Virus record (IMG/VR): IMGVR_UViG_3300036046_000003
Coordinates: 1-64,000 of that record
Length of the DNA stretch: 64,000 nt
Reading direction: 5' to 3' (one strand)
Origin: a virus
Of the stretch, positions 2,773 through 63,022 are shown in pieces (position 1 is the first letter of the stretch; the number at the start of each line of letters is the position of its first letter). The notes under the pieces are model-generated. The model did not search any database, was not told the DNA's origin, and saw nothing but the letters and a program-made list of their open reading frames with translations. Position numbers and translations under genes: made by a program.

Positions 2773-2775
2773 GTA

Positions 2776-3048
2776 ATGGGGGTACTGGAAGTTCGATTTG
2801 TTGCCGCCTTTAACGAGGCGGGTATCGCCACCCCGACTGAGCTGGAAGTATTAGTTGACGGACAGGCACTTGAAAACGCCGCGCTGGCAATTGTTATGGC
2901 TGGGAGCGTCGTCGGTGTCATTACCGCCGGGGACAAGTCCCCGGATACGTCGCTTGCTCTGGCGCGTCAGGCGGCGGGATTTGCTGCGGATACGCACACC
3001 GCTTGCTTGTCGGCGCTGCTTAGGGCGGCCTCGGCTCCGCAAGCGTAG
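2776..3048 (+). CDS. Hypothetical protein
   Basis: AGGAGG RBS. Confidence 0.55.
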   Translation: MGVLEVRFVAAFNEAGIATPTELEVLVDGQALENAALAIVMAGSVVGVITAGDKSPDTSLALARQAAGFAADTHTACLSALLRAASAPQA

Positions 3049-3102
3049 ACAGCGCAACGCGGTCGCGTATACTTGTGTCAATAGGGCGTTTTAGCCAAGT
3101 TC

Positions 3103-3115
3103 TGCATTAACTGCA
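3103..3115. promoter_or_regulatory. TGCA-N5-TGCA operator-like box upstream of polA (one of at least 14 copies; see findings)
   Basis: GTTCTGCATTAACTGCACAAGG, identical to 31795-31816. Confidence 0.7.
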
Positions 3116-3208
3116 CAAGGCCAACCCCTTCGGATAACCCCTCGTTACCGACGCCTTCACCGGCTTTCGGCTTCGAGGGGTCTTTTTTTATTTGAGGAGA
3201 CCACGAGT

Positions 3209-7991: not shown

Positions 7992-8043
7992 TTTATCCGC
8001 CTTGCCTACCTGGGCGAGGCGGATTTTCTTGTTTGGAGCTTGT

Positions 8044-11591: not shown

Positions 11592-13172
11592 GTGGCCCGC
11601 AACAATACACGGGCGCGTAAAGAGGGGGCCGGACGGGTCGCCGCCTCTGGCGACGCGCAGGCTCCTAGCGCAATTATTAAAAAGACCTTGGCGGAAGCGC
11701 TGGTAGCGGGCTACGAAAATCCGGCACAGTTTTGCAGGGACTTTCTCGATTTTAGTCCCTACCCCGAGCAAGAGAAGTTTTTGCTGGCGTCACGCGACTG
11801 CGTGGAAAGCAATCTGGCGGGCGGCAACCGCGTTGGGAAGTCAGCCCTGGCCGGGGCGATTTTGTTGTGGCGGGCGTTCTACCGCTATATCTCTACGGTG
11901 ACGCGCCCCGATTTGGTTAGCCCTCACGTTACCTACAAAGCGGTAGCAACTTCACTAACGGCAGACCAAGCAAAATTGAGTTGGAATTACGCATACACCT
12001 ACGCGAATAACAGCCCCCGGTTTAAGCCCTTTATCGCGGACGTTGTGCATAGTCCGTTCCCGACAATGCGCCTGTCTGTGCCGCAAGTTTCTGGGGGCTA
12101 CGCGACGAGCGAGATTTGGGCACGGTCGCTCGCAAAGAACGGCCTGTATCTTCTCGGTCACTCCCTGAGTTTCGTTCTTATGGACGAATACGCTTTTATT
12201 AAGGGAGCTGACGTAATCGAAGATGAGGTTGTGCGTATGCGGTTGGCCGACCAGGGCGGCAATCTAATGCGGCTGTCGTCGCCCAACGGCAAAAACCACT
12301 TCTACGCCAAGTTTCAGAGCGGCATCGGCAACGCGCACACCTACTCACAGGCAATTCCTACGACGGCTAACCCCTACGTCAGCAAGGCGTATATTGAGGA
12401 GATGAAGCGGCTGATGCTGCCGGAGTATTACCGGCAAAACGTTCTGTGTGAATGGGTTTCGTTAAGCGACTTCTTCAAAACAGAACACATTCAAGCGCTT
12501 TACGCCGAGCAAGAGTACGAACTTCCGATGCCGCCCGTCACAAAAGGCGAATACGTATTAGGGGCCGACCTGGGCGCAATGCGCGACCCTACGGTTGTGT
12601 TTGTGCTTCGAGTAGACGTAACCCCGGCGCAGCTCGTCTACGTAATGACTGTTAAGAACGGCTCCTGGGCATCAAGTCGTGAAGCGGTACGCGCCGCGTA
12701 CCAACGCTACGGGCCGGTCTCCTCGGTAATCGACGCTACGGGTGTTGGTGCCCCGGTAGCGCAACAGCTTATTGAAGAGGACGGCTTTCAAAACACAGAG
12801 GCGTTTGTATTTAGTTCTGCATCAAAGCCCGAGGTATTGACGGCGTTGCAGGACGCAGTGCAGCGCCGGTCGCTCGTTTTTCCCTTCACCACCGATACCC
12901 GAGAACTTGTCAACCAAATGGGCTTCTACCGACTGGACGACAAGAGAATTGCGCAGGACTTTGTAATAGCACTCGCGCTGGTAAATCGCGCCCGAGAGCG
13001 TGCTAAAAAACAGAATGCTATGGAGACGATGATCCCCGACGATTTGCAGATTGTACCTGTTTGGGGAACAAACAAAGTGCCCCTCGATTTGCTGTTGCCG
13101 GAGGACGAAGCGTTTAGTGGTGGTATTCGTTTTCGTCACGAAGCAGACGGCACATTTACCCTGGCAGAGTAG
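11592..13172 (+). CDS. terL: Terminase large subunit
   Basis: Walker A GNRVGKS, Walker B VLMDE, SSPNG coupling motif, RNase H-like GADLG...D, IDATGVG. Confidence 0.92.
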   Translation: MARNNTRARKEGAGRVAASGDAQAPSAIIKKTLAEALVAGYENPAQFCRDFLDFSPYPEQEKFLLASRDCVESNLAGGNRVGKSALAGAILLWRAFYRYISTVTRPDLVSPHVTYKAVATSLTADQAKLSWNYAYTYANNSPRFKPFIADVVHSPFPTMRLSVPQVSGGYATSEIWARSLAKNGLYLLGHSLSFVLMDEYAFIKGADVIEDEVVRMRLADQGGNLMRLSSPNGKNHFYAKFQSGIGNAHTYSQAIPTTANPYVSKAYIEEMKRLMLPEYYRQNVLCEWVSLSDFFKTEHIQALYAEQEYELPMPPVTKGEYVLGADLGAMRDPTVVFVLRVDVTPAQLVYVMTVKNGSWASSREAVRAAYQRYGPVSSVIDATGVGAPVAQQLIEEDGFQNTEAFVFSSASKPEVLTALQDAVQRRSLVFPFTTDTRELVNQMGFYRLDDKRIAQDFVIALALVNRARERAKKQNAMETMIPDDLQIVPVWGTNKVPLDLLLPEDEAFSGGIRFRHEADGTFTLAE

Positions 13173-16042: not shown

Positions 16043-17218
16043 ATGGAAGAGCAGTTTCGGCCCGCCGCTGTAGAAGCATTTGAGCGTTCGCTGGTTGAAC
16101 AGAACGCACCCCTCATTGAGAGCTGGAAGCACGTACTCGATAGCGACAAAGCACCTGTTGTTAAGGGCGCGTATAGTCGATACGCCCTGGCGCGTCTGCT
16201 GGAAAGCACAAACAGGGTACTGGCCCGCGAGGCGACGCAGACGACAACCGTTTTTGGTACGAACTACCAGAAGACGATGCTGGGTATGACCCGCCAGATT
16301 TGGCCCCGTATGTTTGGTCAGCAGCTTGTGTCGGTTCAGCCGATGGATCGTCCCACCGGCCAGATTTTCCACCTGGCACTGACCCGCGATGACGGTTCGA
16401 CCGAGGGAGTGCGGCCCACGGACGACGCTTCTACGTGGAACGCCAGCCGATACGGCGTTTCACGCACCTACAGCGACCACACGACCGGCGAGGGGGGCGA
16501 AATTCAGAAGGGTATGGCCCTTTCGATCACTAGCTCCTCGGTTGAGGTTACGAAGGTTAAGAAGCTAAAGGTGGCGGCCAGCTGGGAGCTTGAAACCGAC
16601 CTGGCGGCCTACCACAACCTGAACGCACTGGATCTGTTGCAGGGCGCGGCTACTGACCAGATCGCCTACGAGATTGACGCGGATATTGTGCGCGCCGTTC
16701 GCAACGCGGCCATTGCGCACCGGACGGTTACGTTCGGCCCCGCGCCTTCCGGCTATCCGGTTGAGAAGTGGCCCACCCGTTTGCAGCGGGCCATTCTTAT
16801 GGCTGACCGCGCCGTTAACAAGGCCAGCCTGCGTCAGCCGAACGTTATGGTGGTCGGCTACGACGCAATGACCGAGCTAATGGATTTAAACACCTTTATC
16901 TTCGCACCTGCCCCGGGTTGGGATCAGGGTAGCTACGGCCTTGTGCCGGTGGGTTCGTTTAACGGCGTTTACAACGTCTTCCTGAGCCGGACGATCCCCG
17001 ACAACGAGATTTTGCTGGGCCGGAAGGGTAGCGGCTTTTTGGACGCGGGTATTGTCTACGCGCCGTATGTGGCGCTGTTCATTACAGACCGCTTCTTTGA
17101 CGTAGAGACGCAGAAGACGACGCAGAGCTTCGCCAGTCGTTATGACCTGTTTACTATGAGCAACACGAGCTACGCTCGCGTGGTACTTGACCCGAATGCC
17201 CCTGCTGGAATTGCCTAA
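16043..17218 (+). CDS. Major capsid protein, T4 gp23-like
   Basis: VSVQPMDRPTGQIF, KLK...S.EL..DL.AYH.L.A, EID.DI, DAGIVYAPYV, SRY. Confidence 0.92.
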   Translation: MEEQFRPAAVEAFERSLVEQNAPLIESWKHVLDSDKAPVVKGAYSRYALARLLESTNRVLAREATQTTTVFGTNYQKTMLGMTRQIWPRMFGQQLVSVQPMDRPTGQIFHLALTRDDGSTEGVRPTDDASTWNASRYGVSRTYSDHTTGEGGEIQKGMALSITSSSVEVTKVKKLKVAASWELETDLAAYHNLNALDLLQGAATDQIAYEIDADIVRAVRNAAIAHRTVTFGPAPSGYPVEKWPTRLQRAILMADRAVNKASLRQPNVMVVGYDAMTELMDLNTFIFAPAPGWDQGSYGLVPVGSFNGVYNVFLSRTIPDNEILLGRKGSGFLDAGIVYAPYVALFITDRFFDVETQKTTQSFASRYDLFTMSNTSYARVVLDPNAPAGIA

Positions 17219-35399: not shown

Positions 35400-35462
35400 T
35401 AGCAGTGCGTTTAGTGCAGAAGGCCCACTCCGTTCGGGGTGGGCTTTTTCTTTGGAATACTT

Positions 35463-38072
35463 ATGAGTTCTATTTCGCAGCTAGACCTTGTACTTTTAGG
35501 CCGACGAGGACTAACGGCTCGCCTGGGTGGGGTTGAACGCGCCATTCGTGACCTTTCGTTGGGCGTCGCACAAGAGGCAGTAGGCGCGGTTACGGGGGTG
35601 CGCCCTAATCTCCTTTCAAACGGCTCCTTCGAGTTCTACAATCGAGGCGAAACGAAACCAAACGAGTGGGCCGCGAGTGGTACGGTGTCTGTAGCGTCGG
35701 GGACGCTGGGCGCTGACGGTAGCGTGGTAGTGTTGCTTTCAGCGGGGGCCTCTATTAGTCAGTCTGTAGACGGGGGTCAACCGCAGAACGTTGGCGCGGG
35801 TACGCTGTCCCTGGCGGTTCGGGCCACCGCACCTGCGACAATTACGTTGGCGGTTAACCACAGCGCCGCCACAAGCGGGCCAATCATTCGGTTGGGGCTT
35901 GACGGGGTAGAGGTCGAAACAAACGAACATCCGGGCGACGGTACTTGGTATCGTTTCTTTCGGCAGTATCTCTTAACCGCCGCTGGTGCGGCTTCTGTGT
36001 CGGTGGGCTGCTCTGCCGGTTCTGTTGAAGCTGATGCCGTTAAATATGAGCGAGAAGACGGTACGGGTACGTTTATCGAACCCACGGCGTTTGTGGGAGG
36101 CGATTGGGGGGCTGCCGTCCAGCTACGCACCCTCAAAGCTGAGAATATTATTTCAGGCCAACTCACGGTTGGCGGGGCGGACAGTAACAACCCACGAATT
36201 AGCGTCCTTAACGGGGACAACGCCGAGATTGTGACGATAGGAGACCCTGCAAGTGGGTTTCTTGGTATTGAGGTTAAGGACGCGGGGGGTATGCGGGTGA
36301 GTGGCAGCGGAGACGTGGCCGTTGTCGGCGGGGGGCGTATTTACGCGGGTATGCCCGCCGGGGGGCGGACTGAGCTGGCCGCCGCCGGGTTGGCGGGCTA
36401 CAACGCGGCGAACGAGAAACAGGCGGAGCTGCAAAGCGCTACTGGTAAACTGCGCATTCTTGGGGTCGGCGGTCTGTCGGTAGAGAATGGGGCGTCCGTC
36501 GAAATTAAAGGCGGCGGCCATTTGCTTGTGGGTACGCCCGACGCGCAGCGTACCGAGGTTCGTAATTACGGGGTTGTTGGATACAACAACGACAACGAAG
36601 TTATTTTTGCGCTGAATGAGGCCGGTGTCGTCAATGGGGTCAACGTAGACGACGGCGATGTATTGATCGGCAACGCAGGCAACAATTACGCGCTTTGGGA
36701 TAATTCTGCGGGCGAGCTTACTATTGTCGGAACAGTAATCGCGGGCGAAGGTAACGTCGAAATAGGTACGGCGGGTGTTACCTTGCTGAGTAGCGGCGTT
36801 AACTACAACGCACGAAACGCCGTGACCTGGGTAACTGACCTTTCCGAACCAAATACGGACTTTCCCGTAGCTGTGGTTTTTGGTGGAAGGCAAGAGGTTA
36901 GCCAGACAAATCCACGGGTACGCAAAATTCTTGACCTGTACAGCGGGTCAATAAACGACGTGTTCTTCTCCCGCCCCGCCGGTAGCCCACAGGAAGACGG
37001 AAAGCTTACCTGTATCGCCATTGGCACAAAAGACGGCGGACAAGCCAGTGCGTTTTACGGCGCGTTTGCTGGTACTGCCGCAGAAATGATATTCCATTCA
37101 GTTGCGCGGCGTATTGAAATTGGCGGATCGGGCCTTTGTCGGAAAAACTCGACAAACACAAACCCGGCTTTTTTGCAGTGGGAAGCCGGGTTCGTAGAGT
37201 TGGGCGGAGAGGGCCATTCGGCGGGGGTGCGTACCCGTGGAACCCTCGACGTAAGAAAGCTGAACGCTGCGGGTGGTAGTAACGTTCAACTCGAAGGGCG
37301 CACCGCTCTCACCGACATAAACGACGGCTTTTTGCGGGTCAATCACGGCGAGCAGTACAGTGAAGGTGTTGCGGTGTCGGGCCGCTTACGCGCATTCGGC
37401 TGGCTCAGTGTCGGCAATGACGCGCTCAACTTCACACCCACCGGGTCTACCTGGGCTACAGGTGGGGCTACCTTACTCCTGAACGGCCTGGATACTACCT
37501 CGATTGTTTTCCACGACGCCAATAACCGCGTAGACGCGATTGTGGCGGGCGGGGGACTTCTGCGTATTGGGCCGGACATTGGCTTTGGCCCTGCGAATGT
37601 GGAGTTCTCAGGAACTACGGCATTCGGACGCGCCCCTGTTTCAAACGTCCGGGCGGTTATGTTTGCGACAACGAATGACAGTAACGGACATAGCCTGTTT
37701 TGCGCGAACAACGGCTGGACGCAAAACCACTTGTATATTCGCGGAGACGGCTTGCCCTGGGTCAATCAAGCCTGGGTTGTCGGTTCCGACGAACGCCTGA
37801 AAGAAGACATAGCCGACGTACCAAACGCCCTAGACCGTCTTCAAGGCGTTCGGCCCCGCTCCTACTACCTTCGAGCCGACGAGGCCCGTCAACGAAGGCG
37901 TCATTACGGCGTAGTCGCTCAGGAGTTGGTAGAGGTACTACCTGAACTGGTGTCAGAAGGGCAGGACGGCACACTGGCGGTGGCGTATGAAGAGCTGATC
38001 CCCCTGCTTGTGGGGGCCGTAAAAGAGTTGTCAGCGCGGGTTACAGCCCTTGAAGCGCGCCTGCGCTCGTAA
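35463..38072 (+). CDS. Tail fibre/spike with C-terminal intramolecular chaperone (peptidase S74)
   Basis: NLL.NGSFE carbohydrate-binding-like start; SDERLKEDI, YGVVAQE, PELV, V.YE.LIP.LV.A.KEL. Confidence 0.88.
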   Translation: MSSISQLDLVLLGRRGLTARLGGVERAIRDLSLGVAQEAVGAVTGVRPNLLSNGSFEFYNRGETKPNEWAASGTVSVASGTLGADGSVVVLLSAGASISQSVDGGQPQNVGAGTLSLAVRATAPATITLAVNHSAATSGPIIRLGLDGVEVETNEHPGDGTWYRFFRQYLLTAAGAASVSVGCSAGSVEADAVKYEREDGTGTFIEPTAFVGGDWGAAVQLRTLKAENIISGQLTVGGADSNNPRISVLNGDNAEIVTIGDPASGFLGIEVKDAGGMRVSGSGDVAVVGGGRIYAGMPAGGRTELAAAGLAGYNAANEKQAELQSATGKLRILGVGGLSVENGASVEIKGGGHLLVGTPDAQRTEVRNYGVVGYNNDNEVIFALNEAGVVNGVNVDDGDVLIGNAGNNYALWDNSAGELTIVGTVIAGEGNVEIGTAGVTLLSSGVNYNARNAVTWVTDLSEPNTDFPVAVVFGGRQEVSQTNPRVRKILDLYSGSINDVFFSRPAGSPQEDGKLTCIAIGTKDGGQASAFYGAFAGTAAEMIFHSVARRIEIGGSGLCRKNSTNTNPAFLQWEAGFVELGGEGHSAGVRTRGTLDVRKLNAAGGSNVQLEGRTALTDINDGFLRVNHGEQYSEGVAVSGRLRAFGWLSVGNDALNFTPTGSTWATGGATLLLNGLDTTSIVFHDANNRVDAIVAGGGLLRIGPDIGFGPANVEFSGTTAFGRAPVSNVRAVMFATTNDSNGHSLFCANNGWTQNHLYIRGDGLPWVNQAWVVGSDERLKEDIADVPNALDRLQGVRPRSYYLRADEARQRRRHYGVVAQELVEVLPELVSEGQDGTLAVAYEELIPLLVGAVKELSARVTALEARLRS

Positions 38073-43798: not shown

Positions 43799-44111
43799 TA
43801 CTGCCTCCTAGAAGCGGGCGGCGCTGTAGTGCCCGGTGGATAGACGACCTTCCGAGACCGACCAAAGCGGAGAGCTGGCTGATTGTGTAGGGCTGAGCTG
43901 AGGCGAGGTCAGCGGCAGTTAGATTAATGTCGGCCACTTCTTCGCGCCGTACTGGTTCGTCTAGGCCGAAGTCAGCCGCCATTAACAGTAACGCCTCGGC
44001 CAAGAGTGGACTTACCGACCGCTGCTTCTCTGCGTCCCGACAAGCGGCGGGTTGGCGAGCACCGGCGGCAACGACATAATTCAACAGCCGGTCAAGCGGG
44101 CCTGGGTTCAC
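43791..44111 (-). CDS. Small protein with C-terminal HTH
   Basis: TISQLSALVGLGRSSIHRAL. Confidence 0.6.
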   Translation of the reverse strand: MNPGPLDRLLNYVVAAGARQPAACRDAEKQRSVSPLLAEALLLMAADFGLDEPVRREEVADINLTAADLASAQPYTISQLSALVGLGRSSIHRALQRRPLLGGSNA

Positions 44112-45502
44112 TTGCGCCCTCCTTTCTTCGCTGGTTCTTTTTTAGCGGTAGGCAAGTCTAAATAGTCGCTGGTACCTTTCCAGCACTTCACTTTGCCGGT
44201 GGTCTCATACAGTTCGGCGTATACGGTTTGCCGCGCCGCGTTGCGCGCTTTCTTAACGGCCAACCCTACCTCTTTGTGCCCAATCGACGGGTCGAAAAAT
44301 AGTTCGATGCCGATGTGGGCGGCTGCGCCCCAGGCTCCACTTCCTTTAGCGGCCACCTGGCCGGGGGCTGAACCGAACTTAATGGTGTCATTGGCGAGCT
44401 GCGCAATTTCGATAAGACCAACCTCATTGCGGGCCGCGAAGGCGCGAAGTCCGTAAGCGTGGGCTTCGAGCTGCTGTGTATCCCCCGGCCAAGCCGTCAC
44501 ATAGTCAATAATCGTATGGGTCGTTTTATAAAGTGCTCGGTCTAGCTGCATCAACTCTAGGGCGTCTCGGTAGTCAAAGATATTCAGGTCTGCGTTACCG
44601 TCGTAAATTCGCAAACGCCCTTCCAGCCCCCGCCACCAAGCAAGCCCCCGTTCGCACTTCTCTGTGTCGGCTGCCGCTTCCGCGCCGAGAAATACGCAAG
44701 CGCCCGTAGCGAACTGTTCTATCTTCCAAGGCTCTACGTTCTCTTTGATAGCGATCAAGCGGGTGGCAAACGATACGTCGTCATCTTCCAGGGCGACCAT
44801 TGCCACAGAGGCTCCCTGTTCCAACAACTGCACCACCCAATTATTGACGATACGGGTTTTGCCGCCCCCATACTGCGCGGCCAACACCAGAATTTCACCC
44901 TGCGCCAGGAGACCGTCACCGGGCTGGCCGTCCGGGCCTACCCCGCGAAACGCAAAGTCCAGATCGGCGCAGCCGGACTTCCAACGAATGTGTTTACTCG
45001 TCTGCCCTAGTCGGCCAGCAATGCCGGTAGCCGTGTGGTCGCGCCCAATTCGCGCCCTGGTGTAGGCGTCAATCTCCTGGCGCAGCTTAGCTACCGCCAG
45101 CTCGTCATTGCTCCCCAGCAGGTCTACTGCCGCCGAAGCCCGCCCTTTGAAGCTACGTCCCGCAGCCGCCCGCTCTACCTGCGCCTTTAGCTCGTGTACT
45201 TCCGCAATACGCACCTCGTCAGGGTGAGGTGCGTTCATAATGATCTCTTCAACGCCCTCCAAACTGGCAGTATCCCCGCGCAAGTCTCTTAGAGCGGCTA
45301 TCAAGGGGCCGGGACGCGCTATTGCTGGCCCCTCGGCGGCGAGCACGCGCATAACGGCCCTGGCCGTTTCGTCCTCGATAGCACCAGCCGAGGGGCCGAG
45401 CGTAGATACAAGTTCGGGCTTTGCGTAAAGCAAAGAGACAAGCAAGCGTTCCCTGCGGTGTAGATCGTGCATAGACGGCTCCAAATAAAAAAAAGTGGGC
45501 AA
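44108..45502 (-). CDS. DnaB-like replicative helicase
   Basis: Walker A AAQYGGGKT, ALED, IIDY, AQL, KGSG, KAR arginine finger. Confidence 0.85.
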   Translation of the reverse strand: MPTFFYLEPSMHDLHRRERLLVSLLYAKPELVSTLGPSAGAIEDETARAVMRVLAAEGPAIARPGPLIAALRDLRGDTASLEGVEEIIMNAPHPDEVRIAEVHELKAQVERAAAGRSFKGRASAAVDLLGSNDELAVAKLRQEIDAYTRARIGRDHTATGIAGRLGQTSKHIRWKSGCADLDFAFRGVGPDGQPGDGLLAQGEILVLAAQYGGGKTRIVNNWVVQLLEQGASVAMVALEDDDVSFATRLIAIKENVEPWKIEQFATGACVFLGAEAAADTEKCERGLAWWRGLEGRLRIYDGNADLNIFDYRDALELMQLDRALYKTTHTIIDYVTAWPGDTQQLEAHAYGLRAFAARNEVGLIEIAQLANDTIKFGSAPGQVAAKGSGAWGAAAHIGIELFFDPSIGHKEVGLAVKKARNAARQTVYAELYETTGKVKCWKGTSDYLDLPTAKKEPAKKGGRK

Positions 45503-47329: not shown

Positions 47330-48364
47330 CTACGTACCGCCTGCCGCCTTCCAGGCGCTTCTAATATCCGCCCGCTTTAGCAGACGTTCAAACTCAGGTC
47401 TCCGCCAGCCCGCGTTCCACAAGTCCCGAACGTCGCCCTTGCCACCCAACACCAACGGCAGGCTAACCGGACGCGCCCAGGTAAAACGTTCTGTTAGACG
47501 CGCAACCATTCGTTGCCCTGCTTGATCGGCGTCGCCCAAGACGTACAGTTTGCGCGCAGTAGCTACGTAGTCGTCAAACTCGCCGCGCCAGTGACCCGCG
47601 CCGTTGGTGGAAGTTACAGCAACAATACCCGCCTGCCAGAGACAAACCGCGTCGGCCCACCCCTCCGCAATCACTACGGTGTCGGCCCCAACGGCAGTGT
47701 CAGCTCCAAAAAGCCAACTACCCGCGCCGGTCTCCATTTGTATCTTTGGGCCGCGTTGCTCGGGTAAACTGGCGCGATAGAGTATCTGCCGCAGTTGACC
47801 GCCGACAAAGACGGGTATAGCAAAGCGCTCTTGCTGTTCGTAAACGCCGTCTGCTACCTCCACCCCAACCGTAGCCAGCCCTACGCGCCACTGCCGAATA
47901 GCCGCTTTGGTAAGTCCATATGCGAGCAGCCGCGCTAGGGCGTCTGTATTTTCCACGAGCGCGAAGTGGTATTTGACCGCAAGGCCCTGGTCTAGCCGTC
48001 GAACTTCGGCCCGGCGGTGAGGAGTATCCGCGTCGGTCAGTGCATAGTCCCCGGCCAACAGAGCTTCGCAGGCGGCGCGTACCGAGACGTGTTCGTTAAA
48101 AAGCCGATAAACGTCGATTGCGTCTGCTTTGTACCCGCACGCGGTACATACACACCCGTCAGGGTAGACCATCATTGACGGCGCGCTATCCCGGTGGTCA
48201 GGCGCAATACAGCAGGCACGAATGTAGCGGCCAAATTCACGGGTGTTTTCCAGCCTACCTGCCAGCAGTTTTTGTAGGTCTACCTCCTGTTTTGTTCGGG
48301 CGATAAGATCCGACAACGAACTACGCGCCCCCTCGGCGCGGCCTGCGGACAGGGGTAGCAACAT
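47330..48364 (-). CDS. DNA primase (Zn finger plus TOPRIM)
   Basis: C...H.D..PS.....C..CG...DAI, IAEGW.D, GD.D.AG, DV.D. Confidence 0.88.
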   Translation of the reverse strand: MLLPLSAGRAEGARSSLSDLIARTKQEVDLQKLLAGRLENTREFGRYIRACCIAPDHRDSAPSMMVYPDGCVCTACGYKADAIDVYRLFNEHVSVRAACEALLAGDYALTDADTPHRRAEVRRLDQGLAVKYHFALVENTDALARLLAYGLTKAAIRQWRVGLATVGVEVADGVYEQQERFAIPVFVGGQLRQILYRASLPEQRGPKIQMETGAGSWLFGADTAVGADTVVIAEGWADAVCLWQAGIVAVTSTNGAGHWRGEFDDYVATARKLYVLGDADQAGQRMVARLTERFTWARPVSLPLVLGGKGDVRDLWNAGWRRPEFERLLKRADIRSAWKAAGGT

Positions 48365-53744: not shown

Positions 53745-53786
53745 AAAAAAGAGACCCCCCTGAGAAAGGGGGGGGGTCTCTTTTTT
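53745..53786. terminator. Bidirectional terminator
   Basis: A run, GAGACCCCCC...GGGGGGTCTC, T run. Confidence 0.8.
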
Positions 53787-54639: not shown

Positions 54640-55059
54640 CTAGTGAATAGGGACTAGCGCGGCGGGCTGCGCAGCGAACCACAGCCAAAGTAGCGCCAAC
54701 GCGCAGAGGATTACAAGAAACAGTTTGAACCCTACTTTAAGCCGTCGCAAAAGCTTGCGAAGTCGCCGCTCTAACGGGTGCTGCGCTTGATTGATCGCGT
54801 CGTCCAGGGCGGCTACTGCGAACGCGGGGTCTACATTGAACCATTCTCCAGCAAGCCGCCATTTGGCAAGGCGTCTGTGTGTAGCTGCTTCGATTTCAAA
54901 CGGCTTTGCGACAGGACGCCAGCCGCGTAAGTAGAGCCGCTGGCTATTCCCCGTTTGCAGTTGGCTCCGCCGACCGCCCTTGCTTTCCGGGTGTCGGTTC
55001 GCTTTGCCGACCTTTACCGGGCCGTTATTACCTTCCTGGTAGACGTAAATACCTGCCAT
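54640..55059 (-). CDS. GIY-YIG (T5orf172-like) protein with C-terminal TM anchor
   Basis: IYV....GPVKVG.A....R..QLQTGN, E...H..L...R..GEWF. Confidence 0.75.
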   Translation of the reverse strand: MAGIYVYQEGNNGPVKVGKANRHPESKGGRRSQLQTGNSQRLYLRGWRPVAKPFEIEAATHRRLAKWRLAGEWFNVDPAFAVAALDDAINQAQHPLERRLRKLLRRLKVGFKLFLVILCALALLWLWFAAQPAALVPIH

Positions 55060-55919: not shown

Positions 55920-56456
55920 TTAGGGAGTTTCGGAAATCTTTTTAACTAATGTACAGACTTTACGGTAGCGGTCGCCCCCGGTGGCCCCAAACACAAGGCG
56001 TATAGCCTCTGTTTTACTAGCCCCGCGACCTATTAGCGTGCGGACTTCCCTTGCCCCCGCTTCGTCCAAGGGCCGTGACGCCGCCGCTTCACTTACCAGT
56101 TTTCTTTCGCGGTCAACCCGCCCCCTTGCTTTAGCGGTACGAAACGGTGGTTCAGTCGCCGTGCGTGTTCCTAACTCCGCGTCCAGGCGCGCCATTGCGT
56201 TCCCCAAATGAAACAACTGCTCTACGCGGTCTTTAGGCCCGCTAAACCACTCATTGCGAAATCTATAATCCTGCAAAAGTTCGTGAACTTCCCGCTCCAC
56301 TCGGTACGGATTGGGCTGTTCGTAAGTGGCAACGACAGACTGCACGAGCGGGCAACCCGTTTGAAGGGTTTTCGTCCTTTGAAGCGCGTCGCTGTCTGTG
56401 ACCCCAATCTTAAAATAGTCCGTATCGCCCATTTGAATTAAATAAACAAGCCCCAT
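55920..56456 (-). CDS. GIY-YIG (T5orf172-like) protein with C-terminal HTH-like domain
   Basis: VYLI......FKIGVT....R...LQTGCP, E..VH, NEWF. Confidence 0.78.
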   Translation of the reverse strand: MGLVYLIQMGDTDYFKIGVTDSDALQRTKTLQTGCPLVQSVVATYEQPNPYRVEREVHELLQDYRFRNEWFSGPKDRVEQLFHLGNAMARLDAELGTRTATEPPFRTAKARGRVDRERKLVSEAAASRPLDEAGAREVRTLIGRGASKTEAIRLVFGATGGDRYRKVCTLVKKISETP

Positions 56457-56460
56457 TAGC

Positions 56461-58281
56461 TTATTCCTGACTTTTGTGTTGCTGCGCGGTTTCCACAACA
56501 ATTTTTACCGCCTCAAACTCGTATCGAAGCCGCTGGTACGCACGTCCGCCGGTAACGCCTGTAGTCTTTTTTAGCGCCGTTGCTACCTCATTTCCGTTTG
56601 TTTTGTAGACCTGCAAAGTTTTGACTAGTACCTTCCGGTTTTCCGCAGATAGCCTTCGAAACACCAAAAGCGCCTCCTTAAAGCTAGTTGGTACAAACTG
56701 ACCTTCCCCCCTGAAAGGGCCGGAAGGCGCATTGTTACGCCTTGGAAGGTCATCGGAAGAGGAAGGCGACCCAGCTACCGCCAAGTTACCCACAGGTCTA
56801 CCTTCCGCCTTGCCTTCCGTGTTATTTACCGACCCTTCCAACAGTTCCGCCAGAAGGCATAGGCTATCCTCCGAAACCTCCCTGTTTGGCGCTTCGTTCG
56901 CTTGTACCCCCGCGAAGCCTGGATACGCAGGTGCCGCTATACTTTTCCGTGGAAGTCCCTCTACAATTTCGTCAAATCGGTCTTCGTTTGCTTCGGGGTC
57001 GCCGCGAAATATCGGCGTTCGCAGCAGCGTAAACTCCCCGCGAACTTTTGCCACAAAAACCCCCCGCTCCTGTGGCGGCGGTGGAATTTTGCTCGGTCGA
57101 AACGGCAGTGCGGTAGTGTCGCGTACTCCTAATGCTGGGCCGTCCTGAGAGCCGTCCACTAGCGCCCCAGCAAGCACCGTAGAGAGGTTCATTCGCCAAT
57201 CCAGACCCTTTCCTGTTGGCGTTTGCATAGATACCAACACCCGGATACCCAACGACCTCGCTTTGCTGACCAGGGCCGCCAAAAGCGCTTCCACTTCCCC
57301 TGTTATCGCGTCCATTACGTCCGTGACCACCACCACAAGCAGCGGCAGCTCAGCGACCCCGCCTTGCGCCGCCCGTTTGTTGTACTGTTCTCGCGTTCGG
57401 CAGCCCGCCGAAACAAGCAACTCCTGGCGGCGCTCGGCCTCGGCGTCAATGACCTTGCAAGCCATTAGAATAGCTTCGCGGCCCTTTTTACCGTAGCCCC
57501 CCGCAGGCGGAAAGAACATATGAGACAGCCCCGACAGGGCGGGCACTAACCAATCTGATTTACCGTCCAGGAACGCAAACTGTAGCGTTTCCGGCCCGTT
57601 TCGGCTCGCCAAAAGCGCGAACCAACAGCGCAAGAGTGCGTCTTTTCCCGCCCCGCTCGTACCGTAAATACCTATATGAAGCAAATCCAGGGCAAGATCG
57701 CCCCACACCTGCTTTCCGAGATAATCTGTGCCCAACGGCACTGCGGTTGTGCTGGCAGGAAACGGCTGAAACTCACCCAAAAGCACGCGCTTTGGAAGTG
57801 CGTTTAGTGCAGAAGCCATTGACGCCGAGGGGCTTTGCAAGCCAGCAGGACGGCTTGCCGCGCCTTTTAGACCGTCGTCATCTTCCCGGCCACGCCCCTT
57901 CGACCTCTCCGGGGGCACAGCCGAGGTTTGAGCCGTTGCTACGGCTTGCGAAGTCGTAGCGCTGGGCGGCGTTTTTGCCGCTAGTTCTTTTCGAGCGGGG
58001 GCGGACAAGCGCGCCGGTGTAGTCTCTACCAGCCGCACCAATCCCGGCCAGGAACCTTGCGCGTACGTATTCCGGGCCACCTGACGTGGGTCAATGGCTA
58101 AGGCTTTGCAAACGGCGGCGGCGACGGAGGGCGAACGGCGAAGAAAGTATTGACCGAGCGGCAGCAGGAAAAGAGGAGCTGCCCCAGCGGCTCCCCCTGC
58201 CACACCGATAGCCGCAAGCAAAATATCGGTCGCGTCGAATGGAGGTGGGTTTTTTGGCTTGTTCTCTATCGAAGTTTCCAT
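56461..58281 (-). CDS. FtsK/SpoIIIE (TraB-like) DNA translocase
   Basis: N-terminal TM, VPLG, HIGIYGTSGAGK, FLDGK, E.ERR, PLLVVVVTD, KARSLGI.VLVS.Q.P. Confidence 0.85.
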   Translation of the reverse strand: METSIENKPKNPPPFDATDILLAAIGVAGGAAGAAPLFLLPLGQYFLRRSPSVAAAVCKALAIDPRQVARNTYAQGSWPGLVRLVETTPARLSAPARKELAAKTPPSATTSQAVATAQTSAVPPERSKGRGREDDDGLKGAASRPAGLQSPSASMASALNALPKRVLLGEFQPFPASTTAVPLGTDYLGKQVWGDLALDLLHIGIYGTSGAGKDALLRCWFALLASRNGPETLQFAFLDGKSDWLVPALSGLSHMFFPPAGGYGKKGREAILMACKVIDAEAERRQELLVSAGCRTREQYNKRAAQGGVAELPLLVVVVTDVMDAITGEVEALLAALVSKARSLGIRVLVSMQTPTGKGLDWRMNLSTVLAGALVDGSQDGPALGVRDTTALPFRPSKIPPPPQERGVFVAKVRGEFTLLRTPIFRGDPEANEDRFDEIVEGLPRKSIAAPAYPGFAGVQANEAPNREVSEDSLCLLAELLEGSVNNTEGKAEGRPVGNLAVAGSPSSSDDLPRRNNAPSGPFRGEGQFVPTSFKEALLVFRRLSAENRKVLVKTLQVYKTNGNEVATALKKTTGVTGGRAYQRLRYEFEAVKIVVETAQQHKSQE

Positions 58282-58309
58282 TTGCGCGTTTCCTTATGCG
58301 GCTGCTTGC

Positions 58310-58886
58310 AAGTCACTCTAGTGGCTTGCGCGCCTCGTCTTGGTGGGTGCATTGTATCCTTTCGCGCCGCAGCTGTCTACTATATCTCCGCAACCCGTCG
58401 CGTTTTAAGCCACTCTAGTGGCTTGCAAGCCGTTTTACCCCGGTAGTGCGCTCAAATCGGGGTTTAAGCCACTCTAGTGGCTTGCAAGGTCGCTTGCAGC
58501 CGTCGATTTTCACCGCCACCAGGCCCCAAAACGGGCTTTTCGTGCGTTTCCCTGGTGGTAGGCCCACAAAGAACGCCTCTCGGGGGCTGTCCCAAGAGGC
58601 GTTTTAAGCCACTCTAGTGGCTTGCAAGCCGTTTTACCCCGGTAGTGCGCTCAAATCGGGGTTTAAGCCACTCTAGTGGCTTGCAAGGTCGCTTGCAGCC
58701 GTCGATTTTCACCGCCACCAGGCCCCAAAACGGGCTTTTCGTGCGTTTCCCTGGTGGTAGGCCCACAAAGAACGCCTCTCGGGGGCTGTCCCAAGAGGCG
58801 TTTTAAGCCACTCTAGTGGCTTGCAAGCCGTTTTACCCCGGTAGTGCGCTCAAATCGGGGTTTAAGCCACTCTAGTGGCTTGCAAG
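58310..58886. repeat. 199-bp tandem array (~2.4 units) holding six exact and one degenerate copy of a 26-nt palindrome
   Basis: TTTAAGCCACTCTAGTGGCTTGCAAG at 58404, 58463, 58603, 58662, 58802, 58861; variant at 58310. Confidence 0.95.
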
Positions 58887-58891
58887 GACTC

Positions 58892-59587
58892 TTAGGCCCG
58901 CCCGGCGGTGCGTGCGTCGCCTCGCCCGGTTTCTGGCGCGCCTTTCATTGCGTTCAGAATAAGCACAATACCGGCGGCAAGAAACAAAATAAAGGCCATT
59001 TCCATAACCAGGGACGCGATTAACGTCATTACGAGCTTGGCGGCAATACCAAGACCGCCAGCAAACGGCCCCGCCCACAAGAGCGCGCCCCGGTCAATGT
59101 ACGTCTGGACGAAGAGCGCCGAACGCTCTAAGTCGGTGATAAAATCAAACACGATAAAGGCGTACACGAGCCATTCAATAAAGGTAATCCCCGCCCGCGC
59201 CAACCGCGCCCCGAACAATTCCAACAGCGTTGGAAACAACGAAACGAGGGTGCCCACCATAACGGCCCACTGTGGCGAAACCAAACCGTAGCTGCTTTCC
59301 ACCGCCCGGCGGGCTTCGGCCAGCCAATCGTAGGTACTCTCCAAGTCAAAGTAGTAGGCAAGGCCACCACAGATACTAGCGATAGCGAGAAACGCGATAC
59401 CGCTAATCATCGCCGAACGCCCTGTAGTACCGCGTACCGCCTTGAACGCTCGTTCAAGATTTTCGCTCAGGTCAAGCCAGCCGAGAAAGTCCCCGTTTCT
59501 GCCAAAAGCCGCATAGAGCAAACCCGCAATCGCCAAAAAAACAAGCCAATCGAAGGGGCCGTAACCGTTAAAAGGATTGTACAGCAC
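58892..59587 (-). CDS. Multi-pass membrane protein
   Basis: Five to six hydrophobic segments; AGAGGAG RBS. Confidence 0.7.
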   Translation of the reverse strand: MLYNPFNGYGPFDWLVFLAIAGLLYAAFGRNGDFLGWLDLSENLERAFKAVRGTTGRSAMISGIAFLAIASICGGLAYYFDLESTYDWLAEARRAVESSYGLVSPQWAVMVGTLVSLFPTLLELFGARLARAGITFIEWLVYAFIVFDFITDLERSALFVQTYIDRGALLWAGPFAGGLGIAAKLVMTLIASLVMEMAFILFLAAGIVLILNAMKGAPETGRGDARTAGRA

Positions 59588-59672
59588 TGAGTTCTCCTCT
59601 GGTTTTGCGAAGTATTACTCCGCAGGTACGATAAGTAAAGAGCGCCCCTTTCGGAGCGCCGGAAGGTTTAGC

Positions 59673-60188
59673 TTACTTTTGTAGGTCTGCCTTCGCCAAC
59701 TGAACGATAGCGAGCATAAGCGCCACCACCTTGCGGCGCTCGCCAATCGGAATATCGTCCAGTTCTCGGGCTACTGGACTAAAATCCCCGGCGCTAGGTA
59801 GCTTGTAATTGCGTATGTCAACCTCATCAAACCACCCATCAGCTAAGCCAAACTCTAGTGGATTACAGCCAATAACCTCCGCAATCCTGCGGAACGTTTG
59901 CGGTTTTGCTTTAGAGCGGCCACTAAGAATGGCCGACAAAAAGCCCCGCGAAAGCGGTTCCTCCACCACGGTCGCGGCTTCCCCCTCTACCCGGGTATCA
60001 ACAGGCCGCTTTGCCCTGGCGGCCACGTCCGATACGTTCAACCCCAGCGTTCTGTCGGCGTATAAGAGCCAATAGCCCAGGCAGAGGGTTAAGTCCTCTA
60101 GCCGATGTTCGTGAAGGTACGCGAACAGCGCGTCGGTATTGCGCCCATAGGTCGCCTCTGCGGCGCGATATTTACTTTCTACTGCCAC
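59673..60188 (-). CDS. XRE-family HTH regulator (candidate repressor)
   Basis: GL.VSDVA.R[insert]LSRGFLSAILSG...P......IA..IG. Confidence 0.7.
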   Translation of the reverse strand: MAVESKYRAAEATYGRNTDALFAYLHEHRLEDLTLCLGYWLLYADRTLGLNVSDVAARAKRPVDTRVEGEAATVVEEPLSRGFLSAILSGRSKAKPQTFRRIAEVIGCNPLEFGLADGWFDEVDIRNYKLPSAGDFSPVARELDDIPIGERRKVVALMLAIVQLAKADLQK

Positions 60189-60201: not shown

Positions 60202-61086
60202 CTACACCGGAACAGAAACCGCAGCGGGTCGCGTCGCCGGTTTCTCGCCGCGCCGCCGCAAATACAAACCCTCTAACCGCGCCGTTGCCTGCGCCGTATA
60301 GCGCTGCGTCGTCTCACAACGCTTATGCCCTGCTATACGCCGTACCGCGTCAATATCCCCCCCGTTGGGGTCGTCCAGCAACTCGGTAAGCAGTTGGTGG
60401 CGGAACAAATGAGGGTGAACGTCCGGGCGACCTACAACCGCGCCCAGCTCTGTAACAAGCTGCCGTACCCGTTGGTCGCTCAACTCAAACAAGCGCCCCG
60501 TTTTCGGAAAGCCGCGCAGCGCAAGATAATGCCGAAGCGCCCCGGCTGTCTGGTGATCGAAATAGACTAGTCGCTCGTCTCCGCCTTTCCCCATTACCGT
60601 CGCCTTGCCCGCTTCGTCCGCGTGGCGGGGAAACTGCACGTTTTCGATACACAAACCCACGACTTCGCTTACGCGCCCGCCTGTGGCCCGCAACACCAGC
60701 AAAAGTGCCAGGTTACGCGCCCCCGCTACCGTAGTGGTGTCGCAAGCACAGCACATTCCCTCAAACTCTTCCGGCGAAAGCAACTGCGGAAGTACCAGCG
60801 GTACTTTAACCCCGCGAACGGCAAGCGCCGCCAATACGTCGCCGCTTAGTAGCTCCTCCGCCACCGCCCAGGTCAAAAACGCACGTGCTGCCGACAGTCG
60901 CCGGTTCACCGTCGCCGGTGCGTAACCCTGCTGTAGTGCTTGCCGGTACGCGGCTAGTTGCTTTGGTCGCAACTCCTCTACGCTGTATCCGTTATCGGAT
61001 AACCACTGAGAGAAGGCGCGGAGGTCAGCGGCGTAGGCGCGGCGGGTCTGCGGGGACTGTAGGGTATCGAGAAACCGGGGGAGCAT
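60202..61086 (-). CDS. Tyrosine recombinase, XerC/D-like
   Basis: S..T.RAY..DL, TGGRVSE, GKG, HPHLFRH, GH....T.RY. Confidence 0.92.
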   Translation of the reverse strand: MLPRFLDTLQSPQTRRAYAADLRAFSQWLSDNGYSVEELRPKQLAAYRQALQQGYAPATVNRRLSAARAFLTWAVAEELLSGDVLAALAVRGVKVPLVLPQLLSPEEFEGMCCACDTTTVAGARNLALLLVLRATGGRVSEVVGLCIENVQFPRHADEAGKATVMGKGGDERLVYFDHQTAGALRHYLALRGFPKTGRLFELSDQRVRQLVTELGAVVGRPDVHPHLFRHQLLTELLDDPNGGDIDAVRRIAGHKRCETTQRYTAQATARLEGLYLRRRGEKPATRPAAVSVPV

Positions 61087-61486
61087 AAAAGGAGCCTTTG
61101 CACTAACTGCACAAGTAGTATACGCGGTCTGTCAACTCTGCGCAACTGCGGCGTACTTTAGTCGGCGGGCGGCGGCGCGATCCCGTTCCTGGGCGCGGCG
61201 TTCTTTTGAGCGGGACGCCTCTACCGGCGGGTCTTCGTCCACGTACTCTTCTGCGGGGTTGTTTCGTTCACGCAGGCGGGGTTGCCGTTCTTTGCGAAGC
61301 ACCAGTGTCTCCTTTCCTACCGCCGCGTACGGGGCGGCTAGCTCGAAAAGTATACAGTTGCTTCGCAGCGGCGTCTATCGAACGGGTCGGAATTGAACCT
61401 ATTGCTAGTCGTTATCTCCGTAGACCGCCGAGGGGCTATTCCCTCTTGTGGGCAACCTAATGCGGGTTGCGTATACGGAGGGACGA

Positions 61487-63022
61487 ATGCCAGACGAGAC
61501 AGTCAACGGGAACCTTACGGTGACGGGGACGGTGTACGCCGATAACTTTAGAACAGCGGCGTCTGGTTTGCTTTCTATCGAAAAAGATAACGCTAAACTA
61601 AACCTGTCACGCAGCTCTAATGTTACAACGGCAAGCCTTAGTGTGGCTACTTCGGGCAGTATCGCGCTTGTCGCGGATAATGGAGAGACTATTGCTTCGT
61701 ATCGTGCTTTGGCACACCGCTTCTATTTGGGCGGCTCTGCGCAACCCTTTTTCATCGCGGATAACAACCGACTAGAGTATGTCACCTCCTATTACGACAA
61801 GTATAGCGTTACCGGCGATAATGAAGCCGGTCAGATTGAAGTAAACGCCGTAACAAGCGGAGGGGCAGAGGCGGTACTCCAATCATACGCTGCGCGCCAC
61901 GATTTTTTTGTTTTAGGCAACCACCGGGCTGCCTTTACCTCCGGATTAGAGCTTTATGGCGGGCAGGGAGCGGCCAGTGTCTCGGCGCGTAGTAATTCGG
62001 GTGGGGCCGCAATCCCGCTGGTGCTAAACGGCAGTGACGTTGCTGTTACTGCCCCTTTTAGTGCCCCGTCCGTGTTGGTTTTCGGCCAGGTCAGCGCTGG
62101 TAATCTAAGTACGGTTGGTTCGATTGCTGCGCCGGGTGTGCTTATCCAGAACCAAAATATCCAGGCAAACGGTTGGCTGGCCTCTCAGTCTTTGTCGGCA
62201 GACCAGCGGATTGAACTGCGATCTATTGACGGCGGTGGCGTTCGCGTTCGCGCCAGTAACTTTGCAAACAACGCGCTCCGTCCGCTAGACCTGGAAGCTA
62301 GTGTAGTGAGAACGCCAGGGTGGGTCTCTGTCGGAAGTGGCACACAGAACTATACGCCAACTGGCTCCACCTGGGCTACCGGCGGCGCTACCTTGCTGCT
62401 GAATGGCCTGGATACGACTTCGATTGCTTTTCACGACGCCAATAACCGCGTGGACGCAATTGTAGCGGGCGGCGGTCTGATGCGCGTTGGGCCGGATACC
62501 GGCTTTGGCCCTGCGAACGTTCAAACCTACGGCTTTACCGGCGCGGGCGGCGTTCCTCTTGCGAACCAGCGTATGCGCGTCTATTCTAGCGGCGATAACA
62601 GCGGTCACTTCCCTCTCGCCGTTGTGAATAGCGCAGGCAGCGCGGCGCTGATGTACGTTCGCGGCGATGGTTACGCCTGGACGAGCCAGCCGTGGGCTGT
62701 TGGCTCCGACGAACGCCTGAAAGACAAGGTTGAGCCGCTTGACGCTACCGCGCTAGAGAAGTTGGCCCAGGTTACGTTCCACCGCTACCAGCTTCGCGCA
62801 AACGGCCTCCCGCAAGTCGGGGTCATAGCGCAGGAGCTACAGCAGGTGTTCCCTGAACTGGTGAGCGAACACCACGACCCGGCCAACCCGAACGAGGCAC
62901 CGCTGCTGGCGGTCAACTATCAGGGTCTCGCGGTCTACCAGGGAGCCGCAATCCAGCAACTCGCCGCAAAGGTTGCGGGCTTGGAAGAGCGTCTGGCCGC
63001 ACTCGAAAAGCGCTTTGCCTAG
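61487..63022 (+). CDS. Second, isolated tail fibre/spike with S74 chaperone
   Basis: SDERLK, G.IAQE.Q.VFPELV, VNY.GL; 56-aa block shared with 35463-38072. Confidence 0.85.
   Translation: MPDETVNGNLTVTGTVYADNFRTAASGLLSIEKDNAKLNLSRSSNVTTASLSVATSGSIALVADNGETIASYRALAHRFYLGGSAQPFFIADNNRLEYVTSYYDKYSVTGDNEAGQIEVNAVTSGGAEAVLQSYAARHDFFVLGNHRAAFTSGLELYGGQGAASVSARSNSGGAAIPLVLNGSDVAVTAPFSAPSVLVFGQVSAGNLSTVGSIAAPGVLIQNQNIQANGWLASQSLSADQRIELRSIDGGGVRVRASNFANNALRPLDLEASVVRTPGWVSVGSGTQNYTPTGSTWATGGATLLLNGLDTTSIAFHDANNRVDAIVAGGGLMRVGPDTGFGPANVQTYGFTGAGGVPLANQRMRVYSSGDNSGHFPLAVVNSAGSAALMYVRGDGYAWTSQPWAVGSDERLKDKVEPLDATALEKLAQVTFHRYQLRANGLPQVGVIAQELQQVFPELVSEHHDPANPNEAPLLAVNYQGLAVYQGAAIQQLAAKVAGLEERLAALEKRFA

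Follow-up and report, generated by a model that had tools for sequence, protein, structure and literature searches.

A tandem array of palindromic sites between a membrane-protein gene and an FtsK-like ATPase gene of a tailed phage: a possible regulatory cassette

The window studied here is a stretch of 64,000 nucleotides, bases 1-64000 of the 72,427-bp IMG/VR virus record IMGVR_UViG_3300036046_000003, which belongs to a tailed phage. On its minus strand, a tandem array of palindromic repeats lies between the gene of a polytopic membrane protein and the gene of an FtsK/SpoIIIE-like ATPase. Our results suggest that this array is a cluster of operator-like sites to which a dimeric DNA-binding protein would bind, combined with terminators, and that it would uncouple the FtsK-like gene from its neighbor and control it. 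We favor this reading tentatively, with a confidence that falls a little short of even. It is based on the architecture of the array, on related sites outside it, and on the comparison with related loci, in which the two genes are joined.

The array consists of a 199-bp unit present 2.45 times. Tandem Repeats Finder placed it at 58400-58887 (2.5 copies, 100% matches, 0% indels, score 976), and a separate repeat search recovered the same 199-nt family with two full copies that were 100% identical. Each full unit carries the 26-mer TTTAAGCCACTCTAGTGGCTTGCAAG twice, giving six perfect copies, and constant spacers of 33 and 114 nt separate them (26+33+26+114 = 199), with start-to-start distances that alternate between 59 and 140 nt. 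The core of the motif is an 18-bp palindrome with two 8-bp arms. The long spacer contains two further hairpins, CCACCAGG/CCTGGTGG and AACGCCTCT/AGAGGCGTT. When read on the minus strand, the order of palindrome, 33-nt spacer, palindrome, 13-bp hairpin and CCACCAGG hairpin occurs twice, and the last palindrome pair is followed by a unique 120-bp stretch that holds a promoter-like match, a further palindromic site (site 4), a ribosome-binding site and the ATG at 58281. The longest open reading frames (ORFs) inside the array encode 50-53 aa and have no Pfam match, and stop codons abound in all three minus-strand frames. A preliminary description of this DNA, made from the sequence alone, had already proposed the 199-bp period, the two constant spacers, both hairpins of the long spacer and the non-coding nature of the array, and each of these points was borne out.

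The repeat copies are 100% identical over 488 bp, and this perfect identity of the units would imply a recent amplification or an ongoing homogenization. In the reading that we favor, the 199-bp duplication may have arisen recently by unequal recombination between 90-bp P1-33-P2 blocks, and such an amplification would multiply operators and terminators together. The number of copies should be read with care. The ends of the record carry a 127-bp direct repeat, presumably an assembly overlap; as the 199-bp unit exceeds this overlap, a copy number obtained from a short-read assembly is probably unreliable, and the value of 2.45 could be wrong if the longest k-mer of the assembler was 127, but more than one unit must exist. 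It is also conceivable, though improbable, that the array is a neutral and very recent tandem duplication, perhaps with a copy number distorted by assembly, in which a function resides only in the ancestral unit or not at all. The identity of the copies, the difficulty of counting them and the absence of the array from every relative agree with such an origin. Against it, an assembly-graph loop needs more than one real unit, and the 26-mer itself is perfectly doubled within the unit while its flanks differ. Moreover, the four diverged copies outside the array, described below, indicate that the motif predates the duplication and has been retained.

The palindrome extends beyond the array. With up to three mismatches allowed, the 18-mer gave 15 strand matches in the window, compared with a mean of 0.02 in 100 shuffles, and the pattern AAGCC-N8-GGCTT occurs seven times in the 72,427-bp genome, always within 57839-58881, where 0.09 occurrences would be expected from mononucleotide shuffles. 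A chance origin of the site cluster is excluded. Counting degenerate copies, ten sites share AAGCC-N8-GGCTTGC, namely the six of the array and four outside it, three of which fall in the 5' part of the FtsK-like gene (Table 1). The outer pentamers and the GC tail are conserved across all ten, and the inner 8 bp differ in three of the four degenerate sites. At sites 1 and 3 the inner changes affect both arms, and the palindrome survives. Conserved outer half-sites around a variable inner 8 bp are the pattern expected when two half-sites are read by a dimer, and an 18-bp palindrome of this form resembles the usual target of a dimeric protein of the helix-turn-helix (HTH) or ribbon-helix-helix type. 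The sites also carry a polar tail (TTT...GCAAG), which points one way at seven sites and the opposite way at two, and is missing at site 2. The looser core AGCC-N8-GGCT has only three matches elsewhere in the 72 kb, so that the two additional looser-core sites at less than 1 kb from the array are unlikely to be there by chance.

At position 58310, where the preliminary description let the array begin, a copy of the motif does exist. It is, however, degenerate (AAGTCACTCTAGTGGCTT, with one mismatch in the 18-mer), and it is inverted relative to the six perfect copies because its GCAAG tail lies on the other side. At site 1, which lies within the coding sequence, Cys275 of the FtsK-like protein is replaced by Ile in eight of the ten closest homologues. 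The change to Cys creates GGCTTGCAAG, and it gives a weak hint that the DNA motif is under selection inside the gene. Two points had escaped the preliminary description: the four degenerate sites, which lie beyond the part it covered, and the position of the array between two genes that are normally joined.

The related loci were fetched using alignments of metagenomic homologues of the FtsK-like protein, and comprised 17 IMG/VR loci (L009-L025) together with two loci (L267 and L268) from an uncultured Oscillochloris metagenome-assembled genome (MAG). Directly upstream of the FtsK-like gene, 18 of these 19 loci encode a membrane-protein homologue (30-36% identity, E 1e-18 to 1e-24), the exception being L021, which has no upstream DNA. 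In all 17 loci in which both ORFs were found, the FtsK frame is already open where the membrane-protein gene reaches its stop codon; L023, without an intact membrane ORF, was left out of this count. The two genes overlap by 4 nt in six of the 17. In the window phage, the same junction is a spacer of 610 bp. As none of the 17 relatives has a spacer there, we therefore take the 610 bp, on the strength of this comparison, to be a lineage-specific insertion in a conserved two-gene unit. The FtsK-like protein of the window lacks the N-terminal LxxLKxAxLAP of most of its closest homologues, which is consistent with an insertion, and no remnant of the FtsK N terminus of the relatives was found in the spacer. 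No repeat family of note was seen upstream of the FtsK gene in the 12 IMG/VR loci, out of the 17, that were searched for repeats.

Copies of the array were likewise not found in larger collections. Searches with blastn and megablast against 50,697 phage records gave no match, the exact 18-mer gave no locus in IMG/VR, and the exact 20-nt core had no match in 185,579 species genomes. For the 601-bp region, plasmids gave no match, and within the Oscillochloris MAG, the source of the nearest genomic homologues, the best match had E 0.23. Scans with the loose pattern AAGCCACTNNAGTGGCTT gave at least 119 stretches in metagenomes and at least 121 in genomes; among the matches listed and checked, the best had four mismatches to the 26-mer, and they are regarded as chance matches on this ground. 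Two candidates with several copies, L217 and L210, were set aside because their repeats are unrelated to the palindrome of the window. The first of them, on an unrelated MAG contig, has a 145-nt tandem unit (L217:1985-2509) with AAGCCACTCAAGTGGCTT beside TTCGAGTCCCGCACG, which resembles the 3' end of a transfer RNA (tRNA), and its match to the core is due to chance.

The assignment of the downstream gene to the FtsK family, already made in the preliminary description, holds, as its product is FtsK/SpoIIIE-like (Pfam PF01580, E 1.8e-9; PHROG 1358). The predicted protein has N-terminal helices, a disordered and variable linker (residues 89-151, predicted local distance difference test [pLDDT] <50), an ATPase core and a four-helix C-terminal domain. 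The last, residues 525-606, comprises 82 residues that are conserved in the 11 closest proteins and whose fold was predicted with a pLDDT of 89. This domain gave no clear FtsK-gamma or winged-helix match (Foldseek best E 0.78; VIA best Z 5.9), and HTH domains appeared near Z 4 in the VIA comparison. PADLOC returned only generic matches to the ATPase core (mad8, SspH), and NCBIfam only EssC/EccC of the type VII secretion system, far under the cut-offs. Relatives from isolates are remote, with 29% identity in Herpetosiphon plasmids and 24-30% in Bacillus phages over the ATPase core. Metagenomes yielded 164 unnamed homologues at E ≤0.001; the closest, P0002-P0013, share 43-49% identity with it, P0002-P0012 being encoded in Logan assemblies and P0013 on a JGI contig of 69.8 kb. 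A search of IMG/VR with the FtsK-like protein alone found no relative. The family is also rare among the genomes of the phylum of the Oscillochloris MAG, where one of 401 sampled genomes carried it, which was the MAG itself. The membrane partner has no Pfam, PHROG or NCBIfam name, and in the protein atlas it gave only unnamed viral and Chloroflexota clusters with scores of 0.84-0.85, which serve as leads only.

Taking these observations together, we propose that a regulatory cassette was inserted between the membrane-protein and FtsK-like genes, which otherwise form one operon. The ten sites would be docking sites for a dimeric, sequence-specific phage DNA-binding protein. The first candidate for this binder is the weak XRE-like protein encoded nearby, and the second is the helical domain at the C terminus of the FtsK-like protein. 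The two terminator-like hairpins would halt transcription coming in from the membrane-protein gene and insulate the FtsK-like gene, which would then depend on its own, tightly repressible promoter. Site 4 is placed where a bound repressor could block the promoter-like element, and the remaining sites, which reach 600 bp upstream and 830 bp downstream of it, may act as auxiliary operators. From this arrangement we infer that a protein binds, which protein it is, that the promoter and terminators are used, and that the effect is repressive.

The terminator-like hairpin has a 13-bp stem and is stable on both strands, with -24.4 kcal/mol on the minus strand, followed by UUCUUUGU, and -23.6 kcal/mol on the plus strand, followed by UUUUAA. 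For the copy at 58572-58603, the z score was -3.8 and none of 200 shuffles was as stable. Promoter-like sites numbered two in 1.9 kb, compared with 0.7 ± 0.7 in shuffles, and no match of at least 9/12 was found inside the 199-bp unit. Site 4 lies between the -10 element of the promoter-like match and the ribosome-binding site, with a repressor candidate nearby that has only a sub-threshold HTH_3 match. If transcription started from this promoter, at about 58344, site 4 would occupy about +12 to +40 of the FtsK-like transcript, and the center of P1a would lie about 72 nt upstream of the start. An HTH gene is found just upstream of the membrane/FtsK pair both here, where the assignment is weak, and in L268 (HTH_26, E 4.5e-8). 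Weak HTH_18 matches below the cut-off occurred in 11 of the 15 IMG/VR loci examined.

A comparable arrangement is the kil-kor control of traB in Streptomyces plasmids, where repressor sites (the traR/korA operators) precede the gene of a membrane-bound FtsK-like translocase. In passages of one report, unregulated traB is described as toxic and as held in check by a repressor, so that control is tight (PMC4447253). The present case differs in that it concerns a tailed phage, that the candidate repressor is weakly XRE-like rather than of the GntR type, and that a perfect tandem array of 199-bp units multiplies the sites and includes terminators as well.

Several observations weigh against an operator and terminator cassette. 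The XRE-like protein has a family match below threshold (HTH_3 score 19.1, where the Pfam threshold is 23 bits) and no homologue in the related loci. The promoter-like TAGACA-17-TACAAT is the only strong match, and the sigma-70 consensus on which it was scored may not be that of the host. A terminator scan under its own rules did not flag the hairpin at 58572-58603. The changes in both arms at sites 1 and 3 can be explained equally by a hairpin or cruciform and by a dimer, the perfectly identical copies may reflect a neutral duplication or an assembly miscount as discussed above, and the reading gives no explanation for the need for six perfect operators.

Table 1. Positions of the palindromic sites, hairpins and genes discussed in the text (coordinates of the window).
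Feature	Coordinates	Strand	Remarks
26-nt palindromic repeat P1a	58404-58429	+	
26-nt repeat P2a	58463-58488	+	
26-nt repeat P1b	58603-58628	+	
26-nt repeat P2b	58662-58687	+	
26-nt repeat P1c	58802-58827	+	
26-nt repeat P2c	58861-58886	+	5 nt from the membrane-protein stop codon
Site 4, degenerate, inverted, CTTGCAAGTCACTCTAGTGGCTTGC	58304-58332	-	between promoter-like -10 and ribosome-binding site
Site 3, degenerate, TTTGAGCCGTTGCTACGGCTTGCGAAG	57927-57953	+	linker-coding part of FtsK-like gene
Site 2, degenerate, TTGCAAGCC-N8-GGCTTGC	57835-57858	+	linker-coding part of FtsK-like gene
Site 1, degenerate, AAGCTATTCTAATGGCTTGCAAG, 3 mismatches	57454-57476	-	codons 269-276 (EAILMACK) of FtsK-like gene
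CCACCAGG/CCTGGTGG hairpin	58516-58558		second copy 58715-58757
Terminator-like AACGCCTCT/AGAGGCGTT hairpin, copy 1	58572-58603	both	
Terminator-like hairpin, copy 2	58771-58802		identical to copy 1
Sigma-70-like promoter match TAGACA-17-TACAAT	58351-58379	-	10/12; unique stretch between site 4 and P1a
FtsK/SpoIIIE-like ATPase gene	56461-58281	-	606 aa
Polytopic membrane-protein gene	58892-59587	-	231 aa
Terminator-like hairpin	59641-59660		3' of XRE-like gene
Weak XRE-like HTH protein gene	59673-60188	-	171 aa; HTH_3 E 0.0013, below Pfam cut-off
XerC/XerD-like tyrosine recombinase gene	60202-61086	-	294 aa
DnaB-like helicase gene	44108-45502	-	
Primase gene	47330-48364	-	
Family-A DNA polymerase gene	3209-6103	plus-strand block	
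Cas4-like PD-(D/E)XK exonuclease gene	6155-7150	plus-strand block	
Large serine recombinase gene	8002-9675	plus-strand block	
Large terminase gene	11592-13172	+	
Major head protein gene	16043-17218	+	
Portal, protease, 1825-aa tape-measure protein and tail-fiber genes		plus-strand block	

The FtsK-like protein itself may be the partner of the sites. This second explanation after the operator cluster, which we consider unlikely but worth attention, sees in the array a loading or recognition locus similar to clt or to a centromere. A membrane-anchored ATPase would use its C-terminal helical domain to attach to the clustered sites and would pump or hold the phage DNA, for segregation, for resolution with the XerC/XerD-like recombinase, or for cell-to-cell transfer in a filamentous host. 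The preliminary description had listed a clt/parS-like site among its options, and part of the evidence is in line with it. All ten sites lie on or beside the translocase gene and nowhere else in the 72.4 kb, their tails are polar, the C-terminal domain is conserved and confidently folded, the gene of the XerC/XerD-like recombinase is 1.3 kb away, and the Cys275 substitution at site 1 hints at selection on the motif. TraB, too, recognizes clt via its C terminus, according to passages of the same report (PMC4447253). Other parts of the evidence do not agree. The Streptomyces clt loci are described there as direct 8-bp repeats (PMC4447253), whereas the window motif is palindromic, spans 18 bp and carries a tail. 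For the C-terminal domain no clear fold match was obtained, winged helix included, and the array is missing from the junction in 17 relatives, so that the family does not need one there. The likeness to clt consists of repeated short motifs on or beside a translocase gene and of a separate C-terminal domain; the setting here is a phage, and no spd-like genes were recognized.

The centromeres sopC of F and parC of R1 offer another parallel. In F-plasmid sopC, each of the tandemly arrayed units contains an inverted repeat, and the repeats of R1 parC double as the operator of their operon. As in these loci, tandem units with inverted repeats stand here beside the gene of an NTPase, with six palindromes in the 199-bp array. 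On the other hand, the Pfam and PHROG scans of ORFs revealed no ParA, ParM, TubZ, ParB, ParR or SopB-like gene, which also counts against a loading locus, the adjacent NTPase is FtsK-like, and the unit is far longer (199 bp) and includes terminator-like hairpins. A bolder version of the same idea, which we regard as a long shot, is that a TraB-like pump for double-stranded DNA, encoded by the phage and made up of the membrane protein and the FtsK-like ATPase, moves or holds phage genomes across the septa of a filamentous, Chloroflexota-like host, with the palindrome array as its cis-acting recognition locus. If this were true, the pump would give the phage a conjugation-like spread from cell to cell or segregation at the septum, possibly together with the XerC/XerD-like recombinase.

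The folding of the unit raises the question of whether RNA, rather than DNA, is the active form. Each unit might produce a small structured RNA of about 90-100 nt that ends at the terminator-like hairpin, either from the plus strand (the CCACCAGG hairpin, the terminator and UUUU) or from the minus strand (the 33-nt spacer, the palindrome hairpin and the terminator). The 199-nt unit does fold better than shuffled sequences on both strands (z -3.7 and -3.9; 0/200 shuffles as stable), the terminator-like hairpin is present on both strands as well, and pairing at sites 1 and 3 is kept through changes in both arms. However, the CCACCAGG hairpin (z -0.94) and the hairpin of the 33-nt spacer (z about -0.9) are no more stable than shuffled sequence, the unit contains no promoter match of the strength given above, no Rfam family matched it, and there are no homologues for a covariation analysis. 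Furthermore, the wobble pairs favor opposite strands at sites 1 and 4, which suggests DNA symmetry rather than a single RNA strand. We consider small RNAs a rather improbable explanation.

Phage replication origins are often non-coding and rich in direct and inverted repeats, as in the lambda ori, the P4 ori/crr and the origins of lactococcal phages. The array resembles the P4 crr and the lambda-type iteron origins in that long non-coding direct repeats carry short repeats that bind, or here may bind, a protein. An iteron-type origin or an auxiliary cis-acting replication region would also suit the finding that, in related phages, the membrane/FtsK pair stands in one block with DNA polymerase A and a Cas4-like exonuclease; in L025, for example, the pair follows DNA polymerase A and a PD-(D/E)XK nuclease. 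In contrast to these origins, the window array has no adjacent initiator gene that could be recognized, with many neighboring ORFs lacking a family, and no AT-rich unwinding stretch (GC content 0.56) or skew change, the GC skew keeping the same sign across 56-60 kb. The primase, helicase and polymerase genes are at least 10 kb away (at 44-48 kb and 3-6 kb), and the relatives lack the array. An origin therefore seems to us a poor candidate, and somewhat less probable than small RNAs.

The two remaining options of the preliminary description, a CRISPR (clustered regularly interspaced short palindromic repeats) mimic and a tandem antitoxin-like RNA, considered here as a decoy or mini-array and as a ToxI-like array, have hardly any standing. 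In their favor is a palindromic repeat of 26 nt that starts with GTTT and ends with GCAAG. There are only two spacers, both of which are constant parts of the 199-bp unit and not unique. A comparison with known CRISPR repeats gave no Rfam CRISPR-DR match at E ≤1, and the 20-nt and 18-nt cores were absent from the species genomes and from IMG/VR, respectively, as described above. Among the matches listed in the looser scans, only single chance matches and no CRISPR array were seen, and no cas gene was found among the ORFs scanned with Pfam and PHROG, except for the Cas4-like exonuclease 52 kb away. The repeats of known ToxI arrays are about 36 nt long. Here the unit has 199 nt, the downstream ATPase is not a ToxN-like nuclease, no toxN gene is present, and Rfam gave no ToxI or other family for the repeat even at E ≤1. 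Over the whole window, no Rfam family reached the gathering score, and no tRNA gene was found.

Two further possibilities were examined and rejected. Site 4 and P2c form 23-nt inverted ends with 21/23 matching positions, as might be expected of a transposon or a miniature inverted-repeat transposable element, but the flanks show no target duplication and the genome has the motif in no other place. The location of the large terminase gene, at 11592-13172, makes a pac site unlikely.

The mechanism may lie with repressor sites or with a translocase recognition locus, and the broad kind of element, an array of palindromic protein sites as in operators, centromeres and iterons, is known, in an unusual setting. 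An intergenic tandem repeat with palindromes, taken alone, is no surprise. What distinguishes this locus is that a defined DNA motif is confined to a translocase gene and its upstream region, and that a repeat cassette appears to split an otherwise invariant gene pair. Word searches of the literature did not turn up any report of such an array next to a phage gene of the FtsK type, which is no proof that none has been published. Phages widely carry FtsK/SpoIIIE-like genes, and the locus offers a handle on their role, which a passage of a 2012 phage paper (PMC3335513) calls unknown. In the part of a 2021 study on hot-spring viromes that bears on this (PMC8597652), FtsK/SpoIIIE is an accessory gene of a putative Chloroflexus phage that also carries an integrase. 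Binding by the translocase would make the sites the first recognition sequence of a phage FtsK-like protein; binding by a repressor would mean that the FtsK-like gene needs silencing of the kil-kor kind.

The related loci showed some features of their own. The genes of the membrane protein and of the FtsK-like ATPase are conserved as a translationally coupled pair, found in phages as well as in an integrated element of the Oscillochloris MAG. This element (L268) runs from host genes through an integrase, an iteron region, a 134-aa ORF and a Cro/C1-type HTH protein to the membrane protein, the FtsK-like protein, a HicB-like protein and an MmeI-type protein. Its iteron region (L268:4237-4463), upstream of the HTH/membrane/FtsK operon, holds a 10-bp unit repeated 7.5 times (AGTGTTATTC) and a 23-bp unit repeated 2.8 times that contains TTGACA. 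All 17 IMG/VR relatives share another element of about 55 bp, in 4-21 copies per locus, which consists of TGTCACAACAC, an AT-rich core with TATA(A/G)... and GTTGTGAC, and is not similar to the palindrome of the window. Examples are L009:5841-5895, 5955-6010 and 6837-6890, and L020:5742-5960. Relative to the predicted FtsK-like ORF, most loci have two to five copies at +215 to +462, and 14 of the 17 have one near +1175 to +1292. Three copies in L009 are all in the same reading frame, and other copies lie just 5' of gene starts. The element may serve as a phage-specific promoter, or it may be a small mobile element of palindromic form.

In the phage itself, the genes listed in Table 1 fall into a plus-strand block and a series of minus-strand genes running from about 64 kb down to 41 kb, which also includes a methyltransferase and a MazG-like gene. 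Around the array the minus-strand order is XerC/XerD-like recombinase, XRE-like protein, membrane protein, array, FtsK-like protein and two T5orf172/GIY-YIG-like genes. The phage has two site-specific recombinases, the serine enzyme (8002-9675) and the XerC/XerD-like tyrosine enzyme (60202-61086), and the latter shares its gene block with the FtsK-like gene, which echoes the chromosomal FtsK-XerCD pairing. Immediately after the FtsK-like gene come the two T5orf172/MUG113 (GIY-YIG-like) genes (55920-56501 and 54640-55059). Neither has a counterpart in the related loci, and one matches the PADLOC candidate PDC-S57.

Beyond these genes, a second tail-fiber gene with a Peptidase_S74 chaperone domain (61448-63022, plus strand) stands alone inside the minus-strand early block, and it matches the same tail-fiber PHROG families as the gene at 35439-38072. 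The early region also contains two pentapeptide-repeat genes, which lie beyond the window at genome positions 64101-64628 and 66003-66884 (L266:602-1129 and 2504-3385). Finally, a perfect 16-bp inverted repeat with a 10-nt loop, AAAAAAGAGACCCCCC/GGGGGGTCTCTTTTTT, is located between genes at 53745-53786 and is likely a bidirectional terminator.

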